In this document: one piece after another, positions 15,681 to 42,486 of the stretch | How the letters are laid out: the number at the start of each line of letters is the position of its first letter | How positions within the stretch are numbered: the stretch's first letter is position 1 | Assembly (NCBI GenBank): GCA_043814765.1 | Contig: JBDRJQ010000027.1 | Coordinates: 1 to 43,320 of the forward strand | From: Nanobdellota archaeon | Lineage (GTDB): Archaea > Aenigmatarchaeota > Aenigmatarchaeia > QMZP01 | Direction of reading: 5' to 3' | DNA: 43,320 nt | The notes under the pieces: model-generated | Databases searched by the model: none | What the model was told of the DNA's origin: nothing | Seen by the model: only the letters and a program-made list of their open reading frames with translations | Program-made: the position numbers and the translations under genes

Positions 15681-15886
15681 TGCGGGAGGCAGGATTCTCG
15701 TTACCAAGGAAGCGTTAGCTCCTTTTGGATTAAACCTTTTCTGAAAAAGGTTTATTTCGAACCTGCGAACCCACTAAGGGACTGGATTCCTCATAATGGA
15801 AAAGCGATAAACCTTTCACAGGCTTGCGCCTCAAAACTCAATTTTTACCTTGAGTCCAGCTCGTTTGACCGCTTCGATACCCCCGC
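15681..15886 (-). tRNA. trnL: tRNA-Leu(CAA) with two introns: 37/38 (15788-15848) and T-loop 59/60 (15695-15755)
   Basis: Exons GCGGGGGTATCGAAGCGGTCAAACGAGCTGGACTCAAG / ATCCAGTCCCTTAGTGGGTTCGCAGGTTCGAA / TCCTGCCTCCCGCA join into an 84-nt class II cloverleaf; BHB-type central helices CUCA:UGAG and UUCG:CGAG. Confidence 0.92.
15708..15753 (-). repeat. Dispersed ~46-nt palindromic mini-element, copy 1 (inside the tRNA T-loop intron)
   Basis: 41/46 identical to 20051-20096. Confidence 0.85.
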
Positions 15887-15978
15887 GTATAGAAATCTTA
15901 ACTAAAGAAGAATATAAAACTGTGCTTATTTCTTATGTATCTTTTTATCCATATTTTCTTAAAAAACGGTGATTAAAA

Positions 15979-16455
15979 TTATCTTTCCATTTCGTCAAAG
16001 GTGTCTTTCAGTTTTTCAACTCTTTCATAACTCCTTTGAACGTAATCATCTATGTGTTTAGGAGTTCTTTTGTCTTCCATTTCCCTTACTTTTGCAAACC
16101 TTATATCAAGCTCCCTTACAATTTCATTCAGGCCGTCAAGGGCCCTGTTGGCTACGACAACACCGTTGGCTATTTCCTTTTCAATTTCACCAAGTGCATC
16201 CAGTGCGTCTCTAAGGCCCAAAGAAAGGGATTTCAATCTCTTTATATGATTTACGATATCATTGTACTTTTCAATTTTTATAAAAAGAGGAGGAGCAACA
16301 CTAGACTCTTCATCTGGTATGGGTTCCATTTCTAGATCTTCTGGCCTAGACATTTCTTTAATATCATTAATATCAAATTCATCTGGTCTAGGCGGTCCGG
16401 GAGGCATTCTACCAGGAGGACCTCTCATATATTTTGATTTTTTCTTCCTAAACAT
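15979..16455 (-). CDS. Hypothetical protein, Pro-rich N-terminus plus coiled coil
   Basis: PPLFIKIEKY followed by a heptad-like helical region. Confidence 0.8.
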   Translation of the reverse strand: MFRKKKSKYMRGPPGRMPPGPPRPDEFDINDIKEMSRPEDLEMEPIPDEESSVAPPLFIKIEKYNDIVNHIKRLKSLSLGLRDALDALGEIEKEIANGVVVANRALDGLNEIVRELDIRFAKVREMEDKRTPKHIDDYVQRSYERVEKLKDTFDEMER

Positions 16456-16492
16456 AAAAACACAATAATATTTTGTTTTTAATTTTAATAAA

Positions 16493-16563
16493 TGCGCCAG
16501 CCGAGATTCGAACTCGGGTTACCACCTTGGCAAGGTGGTGTCCTACCGCTAGACTACTGGCGC
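16493..16563 (-). tRNA. trnG: tRNA-Gly(GCC), no intron, CCA not encoded
   Basis: GCGCCAGTAGTCTAGCGGTAGGACACCACCTTGCCAAGGTGGTAACCCGAGTTCGAATCTCGGCTGGCGCA cloverleaf. Confidence 0.97.
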
Positions 16564-16639
16564 ATATTCAATTCCCTGACTATGATTGATTATTCTATTG
16601 AAGACGACTGTAAACAATGTAATAAGTCGTCCATTAAGT

Positions 16640-16765
16640 TTATTCTTCACCCTTCTTTACCTTCTTAACATTTATGCTTCTGCATTTAGGACAGAGCCTT
16701 GTTGCAGGTTCCATGAATATGGGTTTTCCAACCCATCCACACGCATCGCATTTATATTTAGCCAT
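16640..16765 (-). CDS. 41-aa zinc-finger microprotein (not in the ORF track)
   Basis: MAKYKCDACGWVGKPIFMEPATRLCPKCRSINVKKVKKGEE*; CxxC...CPxC; directly follows srp54. Confidence 0.8.
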   Translation of the reverse strand: MAKYKCDACGWVGKPIFMEPATRLCPKCRSINVKKVKKGEE

Positions 16766-16788
16766 AATAACCAACTCAATAACCTATT

Positions 16789-18111
16789 TTATCTCAGACC
16801 CATCTGCTTTGCAATCCTTGCAAATGGACCTCTTTTGAAGCCCTTTCCACCCTTTGTTAGTTTCATTATTTTCTTTATTTGTTTATAATATTTTAATAAT
16901 TCCCGTACTTCTGCTTCTGTAGTACCAGAACCATTAGCGAGCCTTTTTATCCTTGCCTGTTTTATGTCATCAGGCTCATTTCTCTCATACTGAGTCATGC
17001 TATCTATCATATACTGCCATTTCTTCATTTTTTCTTCTTGAATATCAAGCATACCGTCAGGAATCTTCATTCCAGACATTCCCGGAACCATTTCAGTTAT
17101 CTTTGATAGCGGTCCCATCTTCTGCATTGATTTTATCTGTTCCTGAAATTCAGTCATAGTGAACTGGCCTTCCATTATCTTTTTTACACTATTCTCGTCC
17201 AGACCTGCTTCTTTTGCTTTTTCAAGCAAACCCTGAATATCACCATAACCGATTAATCGTGAAACAAAACGCTTTGGATCGTAAAGCTCCAAATCGCCTA
17301 TTTTTTCACCCAATCCAATGAACTTGACCTTTGCGCCAGAAACAGCAGTTGCTGCCAGAGCACCGCCACCTTTAGCAGTACCGTCAAGCTTTGTTACAAC
17401 AACCCCTGTTATGCCGACAAGCTTGTTGAACTCTTCAGCCTGTTCTTTGGCAGCCTGTCCCAAATCAGCAGGAATAACCAGCAAGACTTCATCAGGTTTT
17501 ATAATATTACCAAGATCTTTCAGTTCCTTTGCCAACTCCTTGTCAAGTGCATCCCTGCCAGCAGAATCGAAAATAAGCACTTCTTCCTTAGCTTTTTTCA
17601 GCGCATTTTTAGCAATATCAGCAGGCTTCTTACCATCTGCATAGAAAGCAACATCCACTTTCTGCGCTAGCTGTTTAAGCTGCTCTTGTGCGGCTGCTCT
17701 GTGAGTGTCGCATGCAACAAGCCCTGGATTCAAACCACGCACCTTAAACCACTTAGCAATCTTTCCTATGGTTGTGGTTTTACCAGAACCAAATAATCCT
17801 ATAACAATAATCCTCTGTTTCTTCAACTGTACCGTAGCCTTTTCCTCGCCTAAGAAAGCCACAGTTTCATCATAAAGAGTCTTTATGAAATACTCTTTCA
17901 AAGAAATGCCTTCTGGAATCTTTGCCTCAAGAACCTTACTCTTTATATTTTTGGATAGCTCTGCAACCATTGCTACATCTACATCTGCCTGTATTAGACT
18001 CCTCTGCAACTCGTGAACAATCATCTCCACAGCTTCCTTGTCCACAACAGACATGCCTGCTATTTTCTTGAATGTTCCCTTCAGCGCATCCCCGAATTTC
18101 TTCAATACCAT
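16789..18111 (-). CDS. srp54: Signal recognition particle 54 kDa protein
   Basis: GLFGSGKTTT, DSAGR, TKLDGTAKGGGAL, Met-rich M domain. Confidence 0.97.
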   Translation of the reverse strand: MVLKKFGDALKGTFKKIAGMSVVDKEAVEMIVHELQRSLIQADVDVAMVAELSKNIKSKVLEAKIPEGISLKEYFIKTLYDETVAFLGEEKATVQLKKQRIIVIGLFGSGKTTTIGKIAKWFKVRGLNPGLVACDTHRAAAQEQLKQLAQKVDVAFYADGKKPADIAKNALKKAKEEVLIFDSAGRDALDKELAKELKDLGNIIKPDEVLLVIPADLGQAAKEQAEEFNKLVGITGVVVTKLDGTAKGGGALAATAVSGAKVKFIGLGEKIGDLELYDPKRFVSRLIGYGDIQGLLEKAKEAGLDENSVKKIMEGQFTMTEFQEQIKSMQKMGPLSKITEMVPGMSGMKIPDGMLDIQEEKMKKWQYMIDSMTQYERNEPDDIKQARIKRLANGSGTTEAEVRELLKYYKQIKKIMKLTKGGKGFKRGPFARIAKQMGLR

Positions 18112-18171
18112 GGTCTACTCCATGTATCAAATTAGAATATATGGTTTATAAATTATAGAATTAACAGAAAC

Positions 18172-18930
18172 CTACTTCTCCAACTCAAAAGAAGCTTCAC
18201 CGTCTTGCTTGTTAATCTCTTTGACAATCATCTCTGCGTTCTCTTCTACATTCAACTGCAATTGTTTCACGTTCTTGCTGCGGCCCACTAATAGGTATTC
18301 AGGCGCAGAAACATATTTTACCTCTATCTCTTTGTCATTAACCTTTGAAAGCACGTTCTTTATCACTTCTACTCCATTAGGCTTGTAGCATATCAGGCTT
18401 AGTTTTGCTCTGATCTCATAGGTCTTTTCTGTGTAGCTCTTTTTTGCAACTTCTATCATTGCTTCAGCCCAGTTCTTTGGAATGCCTTTTTGCTTTAGCA
18501 AATCAGGATTCTTTACAGCAACGTCAAAGCTCTTTGAAAGCGATCCTATCTCTTCCTGCAATTTGAAGCCAACTTCTTTATAGGCATCATCCAATGTCTT
18601 TTTTAGCGTTTTAGCCACAATTTCAAGCATTTTTTCCGCTTTCCCTTCACGCTTGAACTCATTTAGCTTGCTATTGGACTGTTCTTTGTGCACTCTTTTC
18701 ACAGAAAGGTTTATGTTCTCCCCTTCTATTCTCATAACACGGCACACAACAAACTGGTTCTCCTTCAAGAATTCACGTATATTTCTAACCCAGCGGCCAG
18801 CTACTTCAGAAACATGAACCATTCCTTTCTTGTCGTATTCAATTAGTTTCACTAGAACAGAATTAGGATATATTTTAAGGACTTTGCAAATGACCAGCTC
18901 ATTCCTTTCAGGATTTCCAGCTTTACGCAT
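18172..18930 (-). CDS. eif2a: Translation initiation factor aIF2 alpha
   Basis: S1 domain with HVSEVAGRWVRNIRE, INLSVKRV, YVSAPEY. Confidence 0.96.
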   Translation of the reverse strand: MRKAGNPERNELVICKVLKIYPNSVLVKLIEYDKKGMVHVSEVAGRWVRNIREFLKENQFVVCRVMRIEGENINLSVKRVHKEQSNSKLNEFKREGKAEKMLEIVAKTLKKTLDDAYKEVGFKLQEEIGSLSKSFDVAVKNPDLLKQKGIPKNWAEAMIEVAKKSYTEKTYEIRAKLSLICYKPNGVEVIKNVLSKVNDKEIEVKYVSAPEYLLVGRSKNVKQLQLNVEENAEMIVKEINKQDGEASFELEK

Positions 18931-18970
18931 TTTCTAATTACCTCTCCTATTTGTTAGCTATTTGAAAAGT

Positions 18971-19123
18971 TTATTCCTTTGCTTTAATGTTGGCTTTACC
19001 GCCCGTAGGTTCAGCTAAAACAGCTCCGCAGACAAGACATTTAACAATGCCTGCAGGTTTTGAAAATATCATCTGTTTGTTCTTGCATTTTTCACATTTA
19101 ACTTCTAGGAATTTTGATGTCAT
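18971..19123 (-). CDS. rps27e: Ribosomal protein eS27 (not in the ORF track)
   Basis: [50 protein letters not shown]. Confidence 0.95.
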
Positions 19124-19410
19124 TATACCAACTCAAATTTCTTTACTCTGAACCCCTTTTTTGTATGCATTTTTTTACATTCGCTGCAGATCAATCTCAA
19201 ATCAACTTTCTGTGTAGGTTTTTTAGTTACAGCAGGTTTAGAGTATTTTCCATGTCCGCCATAACCTCTCTTATTCCTGTCCTTGCTCTTGTTACTCTGC
19301 GAGTTTGGATGAGCCTTGCCTCTAGGTTTTTTGCTGGACTGCTTTACAGTGTGTTCTGTGTGCTTTTTGCATTTTGGGCAGTATGTTTTTACTTTCTTTG
19401 GATATTTCAT
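19123..19410 (-). CDS. rpl44e: Ribosomal protein eL42 (L44e)
   Basis: [22 protein letters not shown]. Confidence 0.96.
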
Positions 19411-19487
19411 ATTACACCAATTATCAGATTATTGTTTATATAGTTAATATAATAAGCATTATTAGGCGCTTTATTTATAAAAGTTGT

Positions 19488-20000
19488 TTATTCTGCTTCA
19501 ATCTTCCTTGCGTCTTCATGTTTTATTAGAACTTCAGAAGCGTCTTTGGGTAAAGATATTATTTCACCCTCTTTGAAAGGCCCATAAGTTTCCATATTAG
19601 TGGCTACGAACTCTGGTATGTCTTTAAGGACAGCCAGCATATCTTTCTCTACTGCCTCTTTCGACGTGCTCTTCTTGCGATTCTCTTGGAAATCCCTTAT
19701 ATTTTCTACAAGTTTATTGAAAAATACCCTTTCCTGTTCAGTTAGATTTTCTGCGACTATTCCGGATCGCACAGAATAGAGCGCCATTGTGAGTATTTTC
19801 CTCTCCCTTATTTCAAACAGGTCTTGCAGCAACCTCTGTGCAGATTCCACTTCCCACAGGTTCTCTTTCTTATCAGTCACTTTTGATTTATTTTCTAGGT
19901 AAATCTTAACTTTCTCAAAAAAATCATCAGGCAGAGAAACCGGTTTTGTTGTTGTTTTTTCGTCTGCCAAAACTTTTCGTATCCCTTCATATGTAATCAT
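19488..20000 (-). CDS. GINS complex subunit (Gins51-like)
   Basis: LPDDFF, IRERKI, NLTEQE, DIPEFV...YGPFKEG; conserved position between primase and L44e. Confidence 0.85.
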   Translation of the reverse strand: MITYEGIRKVLADEKTTTKPVSLPDDFFEKVKIYLENKSKVTDKKENLWEVESAQRLLQDLFEIRERKILTMALYSVRSGIVAENLTEQERVFFNKLVENIRDFQENRKKSTSKEAVEKDMLAVLKDIPEFVATNMETYGPFKEGEIISLPKDASEVLIKHEDARKIEAE

Positions 20001-20036
20001 AATAATAACTCCCTTTCATTGTTACATCTTAAGGTT

Positions 20037-21362
20037 TTATCCTTTTCTTTGGAAGCGTGAGCTCCTTTTGGATGAAACCTTTTTCAAAAAAGGTTTCAGA
20101 GATTTAAATGCATGGTTTATAGGATTCCTTATTATTTTTGCCTGTCCGCCGCATATATCGTTGGGCTCGCATACACCAAAATCATTGTACCAGCCTAATC
20201 CTTTGCAGTTAGGAGGCATGCGTACCCCTTTATCCTTGTACCAGCGCAGCTGGCTAAGAACATAGCTATCTCCTAGCGGATTCTTGTTCTTCTGGTTCCA
20301 TGCCATAACAAACTCATCAATTTGCTCTTTTTTCCAGTTAGCAGACGATAAGAAATTAATCAGAATGAACAGGGATCTCTTCCTTCCATCACCAAGACCT
20401 TTCTGTATATTCTTTATGCATGGCGGGAAGTGCTCTTCACCAATTGCTATGCTGGGTCTTTCCCTTAGCTTCTTCTTTTTAATTTTCACATTAACCATTT
20501 CATACCAGTCAACTGCTCCTGCTACTAGGGCTTCAGCTTCATTCTCTTCAGCCTCTTTCAGAAAACTTAAGTTAGCTTTTATTTTTTCAGGTTTAGCTTT
20601 TTCTATTTGAAAATCATCTAAGTCCCCTTTTTTTATCGGTAAAGAAACAAGGAAAGTTTTTCTGTTTATAGAATAAGGCATTCTGAACAAATGCCTTGAT
20701 GATATTAGAATAGGATCTATGTCTGCTGCCTGGAACGGATCCAAACTCTCTCCGCCCTCGTCAAAGAAATTGCCAATTGGTTTGCCGGTCTTCTCTGATA
20801 ATTCTTCAATCTTATATTTTCTGAACAATTCCTTTTCGAACCGCTCTTTCATGTAGCTTTTCAAATAAAGACCGATTTGTCTAGCCAAATCAGGAAAATG
20901 TTTTACAGATTCCAGTGTTTTTTTACCATCAACAACATTTGGTATCGATTTCCACGGAATACCTAACTGAAAGCCTGTTCCGCCAGAATATTTTATTGAA
21001 AATGTCTTTACACCATGCTTCTCTAATGCCCATATCAAGTTTCTTGTAGCTATCTTGCCATAATCAAAATCATAACAATCAATATCCAGAACAAGGTCCC
21101 AGCCAACTCTAAATTGATCATAATCACTGCCCTCTGTTTTCAGTGCCATCGGATTTGACCAGTGCTCTAAAGAACAATGAAATTCAACAGTGCCTGTTCT
21201 AACCATGGCCTTTACATCATCCGGATAAATCAACACGTTTGGTCTAGAACCAAAACTTCCATTCTTGAATACGCCAGCAATTTCTCTGTTTTTACCTATT
21301 TCCAGTAAAGCTGCCTGAATATCTGGCCTAGAGTAGTACTCAAGAATCTGATACGAATTCAT
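20037..21362 (-). CDS. Fused DNA primase PriS-PriL
   Basis: WDLVLDID and YSGGTG (PriS) in the same ORF as FPPCI...PPNC...C..C (PriL Fe-S domain). Confidence 0.92.
   Translation of the reverse strand: MNSYQILEYYSRPDIQAALLEIGKNREIAGVFKNGSFGSRPNVLIYPDDVKAMVRTGTVEFHCSLEHWSNPMALKTEGSDYDQFRVGWDLVLDIDCYDFDYGKIATRNLIWALEKHGVKTFSIKYSGGTGFQLGIPWKSIPNVVDGKKTLESVKHFPDLARQIGLYLKSYMKERFEKELFRKYKIEELSEKTGKPIGNFFDEGGESLDPFQAADIDPILISSRHLFRMPYSINRKTFLVSLPIKKGDLDDFQIEKAKPEKIKANLSFLKEAEENEAEALVAGAVDWYEMVNVKIKKKKLRERPSIAIGEEHFPPCIKNIQKGLGDGRKRSLFILINFLSSANWKKEQIDEFVMAWNQKNKNPLGDSYVLSQLRWYKDKGVRMPPNCKGLGWYNDFGVCEPNDICGGQAKIIRNPINHAFKSLKPFLKKVSSKRSSRFQRKG
20051..20096 (-). repeat. Dispersed mini-element, copy 2 (in the primase 3' end, encodes KPFLKKVSSKRSSRF)
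   Basis: 41/46 identical to 15708-15753. Confidence 0.85.
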
Positions 21363-41699: not shown

Positions 41700-42457
41700 A
41701 CATACAAATAAAACATGTTAAAGAACTCGCTTTAAAGGATAAGAGAATTGATGGCAGAAAACTTAATGAATACAGGAAGATTCTCATAGAGAAGAATCCT
41801 ATACCAAAGGCAGAAGGTTCTGCCAGAGTTAAGATAGGTGATAGCGAGGTTATAGTTGGAATAAAGATAGATGTTGGTGAACCATTCTCAGACAAGCCAA
41901 ACGAAGGAGTTATTATGACAGGCGCAGAGCTATCACCAATAGCATCACCTGATTTTGAAACAGGTCCTCCTAGAGAGGATTCAATAGAGTTGGCAAGAGT
42001 GGTTGACAGGGGTATAAGAGAATCTAAAATGATAGATATGGAAAGCCTTTGCATAAGGAAGGGCGAAAAGGTCTGGATGGTTTTTATTGATATACACATA
42101 ATCAATCATGACGGAAATCTTATAGATGCAGCAGCATTGGCAGCTGTTACTGCTTTAAGTGACAGCAAAATACCAACATATGAAAAAGAAAAAGTTAATT
42201 TTGAAAAGAAAACAAAAAAATTAGCTATCAGGTCCAAGCCTATAACAATAACAGTGGCTAAGATTTCTGATAAAATTATAGTCGATCCTAATCTAGAAGA
42301 AGAAAATGCTATGAGTGCAAGAATAAGCGTAGCAATAAATGATAATGGAAACATATGCGCTATACAAAAGGGTGGAGATGCACTTACAGAAAAGGAAATA
42401 AGTGATATGTTCGATATAGCTTTAGAAAAGTCAAAAGAGCTAAGAAAACTAATATAA
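41696..42457 (+). CDS. rrp42: Exosome subunit Rrp42
   Basis: RIDGR, AEGSARV, IELARVVDRGIRES, HDGNLIDA. Confidence 0.96.
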   Translation: MNIQIKHVKELALKDKRIDGRKLNEYRKILIEKNPIPKAEGSARVKIGDSEVIVGIKIDVGEPFSDKPNEGVIMTGAELSPIASPDFETGPPREDSIELARVVDRGIRESKMIDMESLCIRKGEKVWMVFIDIHIINHDGNLIDAAALAAVTALSDSKIPTYEKEKVNFEKKTKKLAIRSKPITITVAKISDKIIVDPNLEEENAMSARISVAINDNGNICAIQKGGDALTEKEISDMFDIALEKSKELRKLI

Positions 42458-42486
42458 TAAACTTTTAAAAAAAGTTTAATCAAAAA
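42458..42486 (+). repeat. Degenerate copy 3 of the mini-element core
   Basis: TAAACTTTTAAAAAAAGTTTAATCAAAAA versus intron TAAACCTTTTTCAGAAAAGGTTTAATCCAAAA. Confidence 0.6.

Follow-up and report, generated by a model that had tools for sequence, protein, structure and literature searches.

A dispersed hairpin module in tRNA introns, at gene ends and in a primase-like gene of a DPANN archaeon

Introduction

Positions 1 to 43,320 of contig JBDRJQ010000027.1 (assembly GCA_043814765.1), which form the window analysed here, come from a Nanobdellota archaeon of the Aenigmatarchaeota and raise a simple question: why does most of an intron of a tRNA-Leu gene reappear, nearly unchanged, in the last codons of a gene for a primase-like protein? 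A first-pass annotation of the letters alone had interpreted the shared 46-mer as a dispersed miniature repeat that works or spreads at the RNA level, is tolerated only in neutral sites and may be linked to the origin of non-canonical tRNA introns. We followed this sequence (the module) through the window, through the 859-kb assembly to which the window belongs (G000, a DPANN genome of 0.86 Mb), through its congener G001 and through further archaeal genomes. On balance we lean towards a non-autonomous interspersed repeat that forms hairpins and persists in harmless sites, with the 46-mers as two of its copies; it would resemble bacterial repetitive extragenic palindromic (REP) sequences or a very small miniature inverted-repeat transposable element (MITE).

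Results

The matching 46-mers belong to a dispersed family

In a blastn comparison positions 15708-15753 and 20051-20096 aligned over 46 bases with 5 mismatches (89.1%), and a 23-base pattern of the shared core hit only these two sites of the window, with 0.00 expected from 100 shuffles. The claimed match of 41/46 positions between the tRNA-Leu intron and the primase gene is thus reproduced. On the transcribed (minus) strand hairpin 1 has three of the mismatches in its loop and hairpin 2 has one in its loop; the fifth stands at the 3' base of the hairpin 1 closing pair, where it is offset by a T-to-G change just beyond the 46-mer (TAAACC..GGTTTA versus GAAACC..GGTTTC). A position check therefore agrees with the annotated layout of four changes in loops and one compensated change at the base of the stem. 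The shorter copy that had been placed right after the rrp42 stop codon is also present, as hairpin 1 plus tail, between rpl37ae and the stop codon that ends the second RNase PH gene (rrp42-like). All three copies (Table 1) are sense to their host transcripts, as had been noted, and both folds and inspection confirm that copies 2 and 3 are not surrounded by a clean bulge-helix-bulge (BHB) motif. The Rfam search of the window gave no family at gathering score, and at E≤1 on nine loci it returned nothing except one tRNA and two C/D-box matches far below the cut-off.

Table 1. Coordinates of the module copies and of the genes and introns around them in the window
Feature	Coordinates	Strand	Remarks
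Copy 1, long form	15708..15754	-	hairpin 1 15731-15754, linker ATCCAAAA 15723-15730, hairpin 2 15708-15722; from fold
Copy 2, long form, within primase-like open reading frame	20051..20097	-	hairpin 1 20074-20097, linker 20066-20073, hairpin 2 20051-20065
Copy 3, short form	42458..42486	+	hairpin 1 42458-42478, tail ATCAAAAA 42479-42486; abuts rrp42 stop (42455-42457)
tRNA-Leu(CAA), two introns	15681..15886	-	exons 15849-15886, 15756-15787, 15681-15694
T-loop (59/60) tRNA-Leu intron	15695..15755	-	61 nt: 1 nt, module, 13-nt 3' segment pairing with T-loop
Canonical (37/38) tRNA-Leu intron	15788..15848	-	61 nt, without full module
Primase-like open reading frame, 441 aa	20037..21362	-	module is part of basic C-terminal tail
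Gins51 gene, directly downstream of primase copy	19488..20000	-	Pfam Gins51_C 2.3e-15, Sld5 1.4e-11

About 30 copies were found in G000 by nhmmer, blastn and a hairpin-plus-tail scan. A covariance model built from 19 copies gave 49 matches in this genome at E≤0.05, which correspond to about 41 distinct loci after removal of seven opposite-strand echoes and one match that shared a locus. Copy 1 is the top match (rank 1, 73.5 bits) and copy 2 ranks 4th among all matches (70.2 bits); copy 3, with hairpin 1 and tail only, ranks 43rd (24.2 bits, E=0.016). The model also matched in 39 of the 61 genomes of the order (0-35 matches per genome, 22 genomes without a match), which bears out the proposed dispersed miniature repeat. 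Chance similarity of two 46-mers is ruled out by the shuffles, by blastn and by this family.

The full unit measures ~46-52 nt and consists of hairpin 1, with the form (T/G)AAACCTTTT-loop-AAAAGGTTT(A/C), the conserved single-stranded linker, and hairpin 2, GGAG..-loop-..CTTCC with a bulged U, whereas the short form has hairpin 1 and tail only. Pairing was counted in a model-fitted alignment of 50 matches from seven genomes (G000, G001, G005, G024, G027, G031 and G046). Pairs were formed in 92.8% of the cells, 8 of the 13 pairs changed on both sides, and 35 doubly changed cells were observed against 5.3±2.1 after shuffling, a number that none of 500 shuffles reached; sliding the 3' partners by one column lowered pairing to 68%, and all of these statistics lean towards structure because the alignment was fitted with the model and has eight opposite-strand echoes among its sequences. 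The closing pair of hairpin 1 alone occurs as T-A, G-C, C-G and A-T. An alignment of the raw copies with MAFFT/RNAalifold, which was replaced by the covariance-model alignment, recovered no more than six pairs, all of hairpin 1, as the length of hairpin 2 is variable.

Both hairpins are present at 20 loci that score above 43 bits (long form), and the 21 weaker loci are short forms. tRNA introns hold 15 of the 20 long forms and none of the weaker loci. The five long forms elsewhere are the primase copy, one copy right after tRNA-Ser(GCT) and three copies in spacers, and in total ~26 loci lie outside tRNA genes. Below the model threshold lie one short form, in the intron of tRNA-Arg(CCT), and two T-loop variants that have diverged. 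Some long forms carry an unrelated hairpin in place of hairpin 1.

Two further hairpin repeats were seen. One (..GGTCTTATCTCCAATATAATGGAGTAAGAGAT..) is nested with module copies at C29:45572-45745 and C20:26600-26700 of G000 and recurs within composite insertions of G001. The other, of the type GACGRCTTAT..loop..ATAAGYCGTC, lies at ~16595-16634 (minus strand) of the window, upstream of tRNA-Gly (16492-16564); it stands 5-45 nt upstream of this and at least five other tRNA genes of G000, and occurs also within the 107-nt T-loop intron of tRNA-Val(GAC) and at C20:33.8k. This hairpin may act as a promoter or leader element of tRNA genes, or may represent a further repeat family.

Module copies occupy the interior of tRNA introns

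The native tRNA-Leu gene was missed by both ARAGORN and Rfam. In-silico removal of the 61 nt of the T-loop intron yields a cloverleaf tRNA-Leu with an ARAGORN score of 106.9 and a canonical intron of 61 nt. The anticodon of this tRNA is CAG under the ARAGORN intron placement and CAA under the BHB-consistent placement. Inspection of the splice region around copy 1 gives the T-stem, a UUCG/CGAG pairing with one G-U pair, the bulges AA|A and AA|U, and hairpin 1 right after the first bulge. In this form the splice motif would be a relaxed one, since the 3' strand of hairpin 1 is not continuous with the central helix. The minimum free energy fold of the intron pairs UUC/GAA, unlike the pairing obtained by inspection.

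Fifteen copies were assigned to tRNA introns, namely in the genes for Leu, Ser-TGA, Ser-CGA (both introns), Thr-TGT, Val-GAC, Pro-GGG, Pro-TGG (both introns), Ala, Trp, Cys, Asn and two others; 13 of these assignments are supported by ARAGORN and two by reading the flanks only, with the tRNA unassigned. Nine copies lie in the T-loop (59/60) and six at 37/38, and every one is in sense orientation. Hairpin 1 starts 0-2 nt past the 5' splice site in each case, which is where the inner helix of the BHB begins, the remainder of the intron being a short 3' segment that is specific to the tRNA and able to pair with the exon.

A splicing endonuclease is predicted in G000 as a single EndA reading frame of 406 aa with two matches to the tRNA_int_endo catalytic domain (C37:39348-39830). 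A three-unit EndA with broad specificity is described for ultrasmall archaea (PMC3239211), and by its domain content the 406-aa frame is probably a multi-unit EndA of this kind.

Copies differ between close relatives and three T-loop intron sites predate the module

The exons of the tRNA-Leu gene are identical in G000 and G001. In G001 the T-loop intron at the same position has 38 nt, is free of the module and folds as a strict helix-bulge-helix-bulge-helix motif. The T-loop intron of tRNA-Pro(GGG) has 14 nt in G024 versus 62 nt with module in G000, and both end in TATGAAAA (last 8 nt). In tRNA-Pro(TGG) of G001 the T-loop intron of ~70 nt is again module-free, and the canonical intron carries a module variant as in G000. 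The tRNA genes Thr-TGT and Cys contain the module in both congeners. None of the orthologous tRNA sites compared showed the gain of an intron: G001, for Leu(CAA) and Pro(TGG), and G024, for Pro(GGG), each have an intron without module at the same T-loop position. At these three T-loop sites the intron position is therefore older than the module, as the introns of the relatives hold unrelated, module-free content. Judged from these comparisons, the module colonises introns rather than founding them, and the suggested link to the origin of non-canonical introns is not supported.

The canonical tRNA-Leu intron of G001 has 39 nt and lies in the same place with partly different content. The intron of G000 is 22 nt longer, and its extra part contains GAAAGGTTTATCGCTTTTCC, which resembles half a module.

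Outside the tRNA genes the rpl23-rpl2 spacer consists of 15-18 nt (stop codon, Shine-Dalgarno sequence and start codon) in G016 and G005, which belong to two other genera, versus 43 nt in G000, where the extra 28 nt follow right after the shared TAA. In the opposite direction, a long-form insertion of 71-75 nt in G001 corresponds to an empty site on contig C16 of G000, and excising the insert together with one copy of ATGG leaves an alignment free of gaps. A composite insertion of 146 nt, found in G001 only (opposite C17 of G000), is antisense to the gene whose start codon adjoins it. Comparison of these sites shows copies gained and lost as DNA between closely related genomes.

The gene order around rpl2 also varies within the taxonomic family: in G001 and G024 the gene before rpl2 is not rpl23 but one whose product ends in ..GGRRGRRI or ..RRGRRV.

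The primase copy is read through as a basic tail

Copy 2 encodes approximately residues 422-438 of the 441-aa reading frame, hence its last ~18 codons. Homologues of this frame are present in 40 of 41 related genomes. Its match to Pfam PriL (primase large subunit) is weak and below threshold and NCBIfam gives it no name; it may be a fused primase as in Nanoarchaeum. The G001 orthologue is 80% identical over residues 1-296 and 72% over 291-424 and ends in ..FKSLNPTRKFRKRKK before the stop, 24 nt shorter than G000 with ..FKSLKPFLKKVSSKRSSRFQRKG. In 10 other genera the tails are unrelated, short and basic. The possibility that relatives all share one primase C-terminus is thus not borne out, the close relative G001 being without the same tail.

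In the primase frame the usual end of hairpin 1 (..GGTTTAATCC) would create a stop codon (GTT TAA). The primase copy reads GGTTTCATCC, paired with GAAACC, and this G..C variant of the closing pair drops both TAA triplets, so that the frame stays open through the element. Removing the copy would not fuse the frame to gins51. An mRNA intron at this place was rejected, as only an imperfect flanking helix of 8 bp and no second bulge are present.

The G001 orthologue (C82:424-1718) was matched as two pieces, which have residues 291-298 in common and the first of which contains a TGA; this may reflect a frameshift, an assembly error or a broken gene. Module-like stretches (TGAACCTTT..AAGGTTCA ACCCAAAA) were seen within lysine-rich coding regions of G001 (C9:9521-9551) and G000 (C37:9448, C37:21748, C28:35415), which may be further copies in coding sequence or low-complexity look-alikes.

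Copies at stop codons and the possibility of a 3'-end signal

Intergenic contexts were counted for 22 copies against crude longest-ORF calls (885 open reading frames, ORFs). In 12/22 the stop codon of the co-oriented upstream ORF overlaps hairpin 1 or lies at most 5 nt away, for example as [TAA]ACC.., [TAG]AAACC.. or [TAA]TAAAC.. (stop codon in brackets). The upstream gene is co-oriented in 18/21 cases and the downstream gene in 14/22; copies between convergent genes occur, and only one of 22 lies in a divergent spacer. Together with the uniform sense orientation of the 15 intron copies, this supports the non-random orientation that had been claimed, and the locations (introns, stop codons or spacers, and the primase tail) support confinement to neutral sites.

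The same pattern is what the main rival explanation would predict. According to it hairpin 1 plus AUCCAAAA, the short form, would work as a conserved archaeal 3'-end signal (a terminator, a protecting hairpin or a protein-binding site) that was borrowed by tRNA introns and whose copies multiply through usefulness rather than selfishness. Besides the contact with stop codons, the orientation to upstream genes and the rarity of divergent spacers, a variant directly after the 3' end of tRNA-Ser(GCT) and the high conservation of the core across families agree with it. As to an intrinsic terminator, the location fits in 12/22 (at the stop codon), but the hairpin is followed by an A-rich tail and no U-tract, the sole run of U (4-5 U) being in the 5' arm of the hairpin. 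Only ~26 of ~885 called genes have a copy, and 22 of the 61 genomes of the order have no match at all. The signal would moreover be dispensable at the rpl23-rpl2 junction and at the sites that vary between congeners, since other genera lack it at that junction and G000 and G001 differ at those sites. Efficient termination by a T-run inside a tRNA intron would be harmful. We therefore consider this explanation unlikely, though of the alternatives it is the one to be taken most seriously, and continue to favour a repeat that persists where it does no harm.

Distribution across archaea

The core 18-mer was found, with one mismatch allowed, in 9 of 41 genomes, among them G000 (18), G019 (18), G012 (14), G001 (11) and G024 (4), whereas the reversed 18-mer used as control gave 0 in all genomes searched. 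Model matches were obtained in 23/36 genomes of family f1, 8/9 of f2, 5/5 of f4 and 1/8 of f6. In G012 and G019 hairpin 1 has a loop of ~16 nt, and copies lie in tRNA introns, after genes and in tandem arrays. The arrays of this long-loop module in G019 (C47:1400-1950, C41:6280-6640) have a period of 62-68 nt with identical 'spacers', in a record that is partly masked with N.

A scan with the exact 17-mer over one genome per prokaryotic species hit at least 117 stretches, of which 82 matches within 80 loci were listed. Among the matches listed, a complementary arm upstream of the 17-mer is present at 20 loci, all from archaeal metagenome-assembled genomes (MAGs), and the remainder looks like chance. 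These records include some labelled Methanophagales, Methanosarcinales, Bathyarchaeia, Aenigmatarchaeota, Pacearchaeota and Woesearchaeota; five such genomes gave 2-9 weak model matches each, on different contigs. In 6 of 16 loci examined the hairpin follows a stop codon by 0-7 nt, in MAGs labelled ANME-1 (anaerobic methanotrophic archaea, group 1), Methanosarcinales and Pacearchaeota. In a search for viral carriers the strict hairpin pattern had no match, and none of 19 matches to the 17-mer had a complementary arm. The short forms in other phyla may come from mis-binning or from a shared extrachromosomal element. MAGs with the labels ANME-1, Methanosarcinales and Bathyarchaeia have a conserved GGGAGGGTTGRTAAG motif and a GC-rich hairpin (GGGGGYCTGGCCCCTTA) beside the short form; since the same composite occurs in three distant lineages, a shared mobile or extrachromosomal element is suggested.

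The order of stop codon, hairpin and ATC(C/A)AAAA at the 6/16 loci also agrees with a 3'-end signal. A wider version of that idea, which we judge to be a rather improbable one, is that hairpin 1 plus its tail represents an undescribed stop-codon-proximal signal across distant archaea (DPANN and the ANME-1-, Methanosarcinales- and Bathyarchaeia-labelled MAGs), which would be recognised by a conserved factor, would end or process transcripts and would have been recruited in this DPANN order as the inner helix of the splice motif. If this were true, introns would be built around a '3'-end here' signal right after the 5' exon, which would fit interrupted tRNA genes that descend from, or partly behave as, separately transcribed pieces. 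The core sequence was not found in the published papers searched, and the literature search returned no publication on repeats in DPANN tRNA introns.

Discussion

A repeat proposed to be confined to harmless sites

To explain these copies we prefer a hairpin unit that would move as DNA. In a very compact genome selection would leave copies only where an extra hairpin is harmless, and three kinds of site could qualify. In pre-existing tRNA introns hairpin 1 would replace the inner helix of the BHB, and pairing with the exon would be kept up by the tRNA-specific 3' segment. Where a copy stands exactly at or behind a stop codon, the spacer would otherwise consist of a ribosome-binding site, and the TAA of the element would often serve as the stop. 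Once, a copy may have settled in the lysine/arginine-rich, poorly conserved and disordered tail of the primase, where the frame runs through the element. The copies may also be of use, for example as 3' hairpins that terminate or protect transcripts, but the interpretation does not need such a benefit.

Several observations weigh against this interpretation. No gene for a Y1 transposase (PF01797) was detected in G000, G001, G012 and G019, and G024 has one match (these genomes are 83-95% complete); no TnpB zinc-ribbon domain scored over the cut-off in G000, where other transposase families were not searched. The RVT_1 reverse transcriptase domain was found in none of G000, G001, G012, G019 and G024 and is present in 10/36 other genomes. 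Terminal inverted repeats are missing except for hairpin 1, which stands at one end only and whose arms are a stem rather than a duplication, because the closing pair co-varies (T-A, G-C, C-G). There is no consistent target duplication, the 4-nt ATGG being a single possible case. Two of the sites are not clean empty sites in the congener: the G001 primase site keeps a weak half-hairpin resemblance to hairpin 1, and the G001 rrp42-rpl37ae spacer, shorter by ~13 nt, contains only one half of the hairpin. The counts at intergenic sites depend on crude gene calls. A core of 17-30 nt is nearly identical across families whose primases are ~50% identical, and short forms occur in MAGs of other phyla; both are unexpected for a drifting selfish sequence and may therefore indicate a conserved function. 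Finally, the interpretation does not by itself explain why the intron copies are all sense; selection or copying between introns would best account for this.

Movement through RNA, as the first-pass annotation had proposed, is a further alternative. An excised, possibly circular BHB intron would be reverse-spliced into other RNAs and copied back into DNA. It is in line with such a route that all 15 intron copies are sense, that the primase copy is sense and of the long, intron-type form, and that whole introns, between their two splice sites, are different in G000 and G001 apart from a similar exon-pairing 3' segment. However, RNA-level spread is unsupported because no reverse transcriptase was found in the five module-rich genomes searched, and a link between reverse transcriptase and module was rejected as the two do not co-occur. 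A BHB was found around neither the primase copy nor the rrp42 copy, 3/21 intergenic copies are antisense to the upstream gene, and a copy in G001 abuts the start codon of a gene to which it is antisense. We regard this route as very improbable and hold to movement as DNA.

The least credible of the functional readings is a promoter cassette in which a BRE/TATA-like (B recognition element and TATA box) AAAAGGTTTAAT, or a TATA box that overlaps the base of hairpin 1, would drive the downstream gene (for example gins51 or rpl37ae): a co-oriented downstream gene in 14/22 intergenic copies, at some of them 21-29 nt from TTTAAT, and a TATA-like TTTAWATAAAC before several copies fit it, but the spacing to the start codon ranges from 21 to >100 nt, Shine-Dalgarno sequences stand where the transcript would begin (rpl2 GGTGAT; C36 GAGAGGT), 8/22 copies face a convergent gene, tRNA genes of G000 use ordinary TTTAWATA boxes with the module in one exception only, and the loop of hairpin 1 ranges from 3 to 60 nt between genomes.

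The same loop range led us to reject a dimeric operator site. An IS200/IS605 or omega-RNA end is disfavoured as well: no TnpA was found in G000, G001, G012 and G019, and the TnpB genes of G024 lie on other contigs than the copies. The module showed no fit to the core-site consensus of an integron attC site, a comparison made without a tool.

Relation to known systems

The origin and turnover of archaeal tRNA introns are an open question, and G000 shows one concrete process: an insertable hairpin unit fills many intron interiors at two positions, while the intron sites are older, and the same unit is found at the remaining neutral places of this very compact genome, among them the end of an essential replication gene. 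The family offers material on the tolerance of a broad-specificity splicing endonuclease, on the movement of small repeats without an obvious transposase and on the role of stop-codon hairpins in archaeal transcript ends.

Bacterial REP sequences and bacterial interspersed mosaic elements (BIMEs) are extragenic palindromes mobilised by REP-associated tyrosine (RAYT, Y1) transposases. The module resembles them as a short imperfect palindrome with tens of copies, non-coding, after genes or within operons and in biased orientation. It differs by its second hairpin and conserved single-stranded linker, by its presence within tRNA introns and by its archaeal host, and no RAYT (PF01797) gene was found in G000, G001, G012 and G019. 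MITEs and the IS200/IS605-derived palindrome-associated transposable elements (PATEs) are likewise small, non-autonomous hairpin repeats without long target duplications that are polymorphic between relatives. The module is far smaller (30-52 nt) and has no terminal repeats beyond the hairpin, and neither a parent element nor TnpA was found in G000.

The closest published case is the transposition of tRNA introns in Thermoproteales (PMC4090602), for which the mechanism is reported as unknown and thought to act at the DNA level. The likeness is that closely similar intron sequences recur across tRNA identities and positions, here with 15 copies at 37/38 and 59/60. Instead of a whole intron, only its inner part is repeated here; the module is also found outside tRNA genes, at stop codons, in spacers and in a protein tail (~26 loci), and at three T-loop sites the intron predates the repeated unit. 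For Asgard archaea a 2026 preprint describes heavily interrupted tRNA genes with introns gained where a BHB can form, and states that the route by which introns arrive 'remains open' (bioRxiv 10.64898/2026.10.13.758758). Compared with that account, in G000 a recognisable repeat family supplies the content of the introns.

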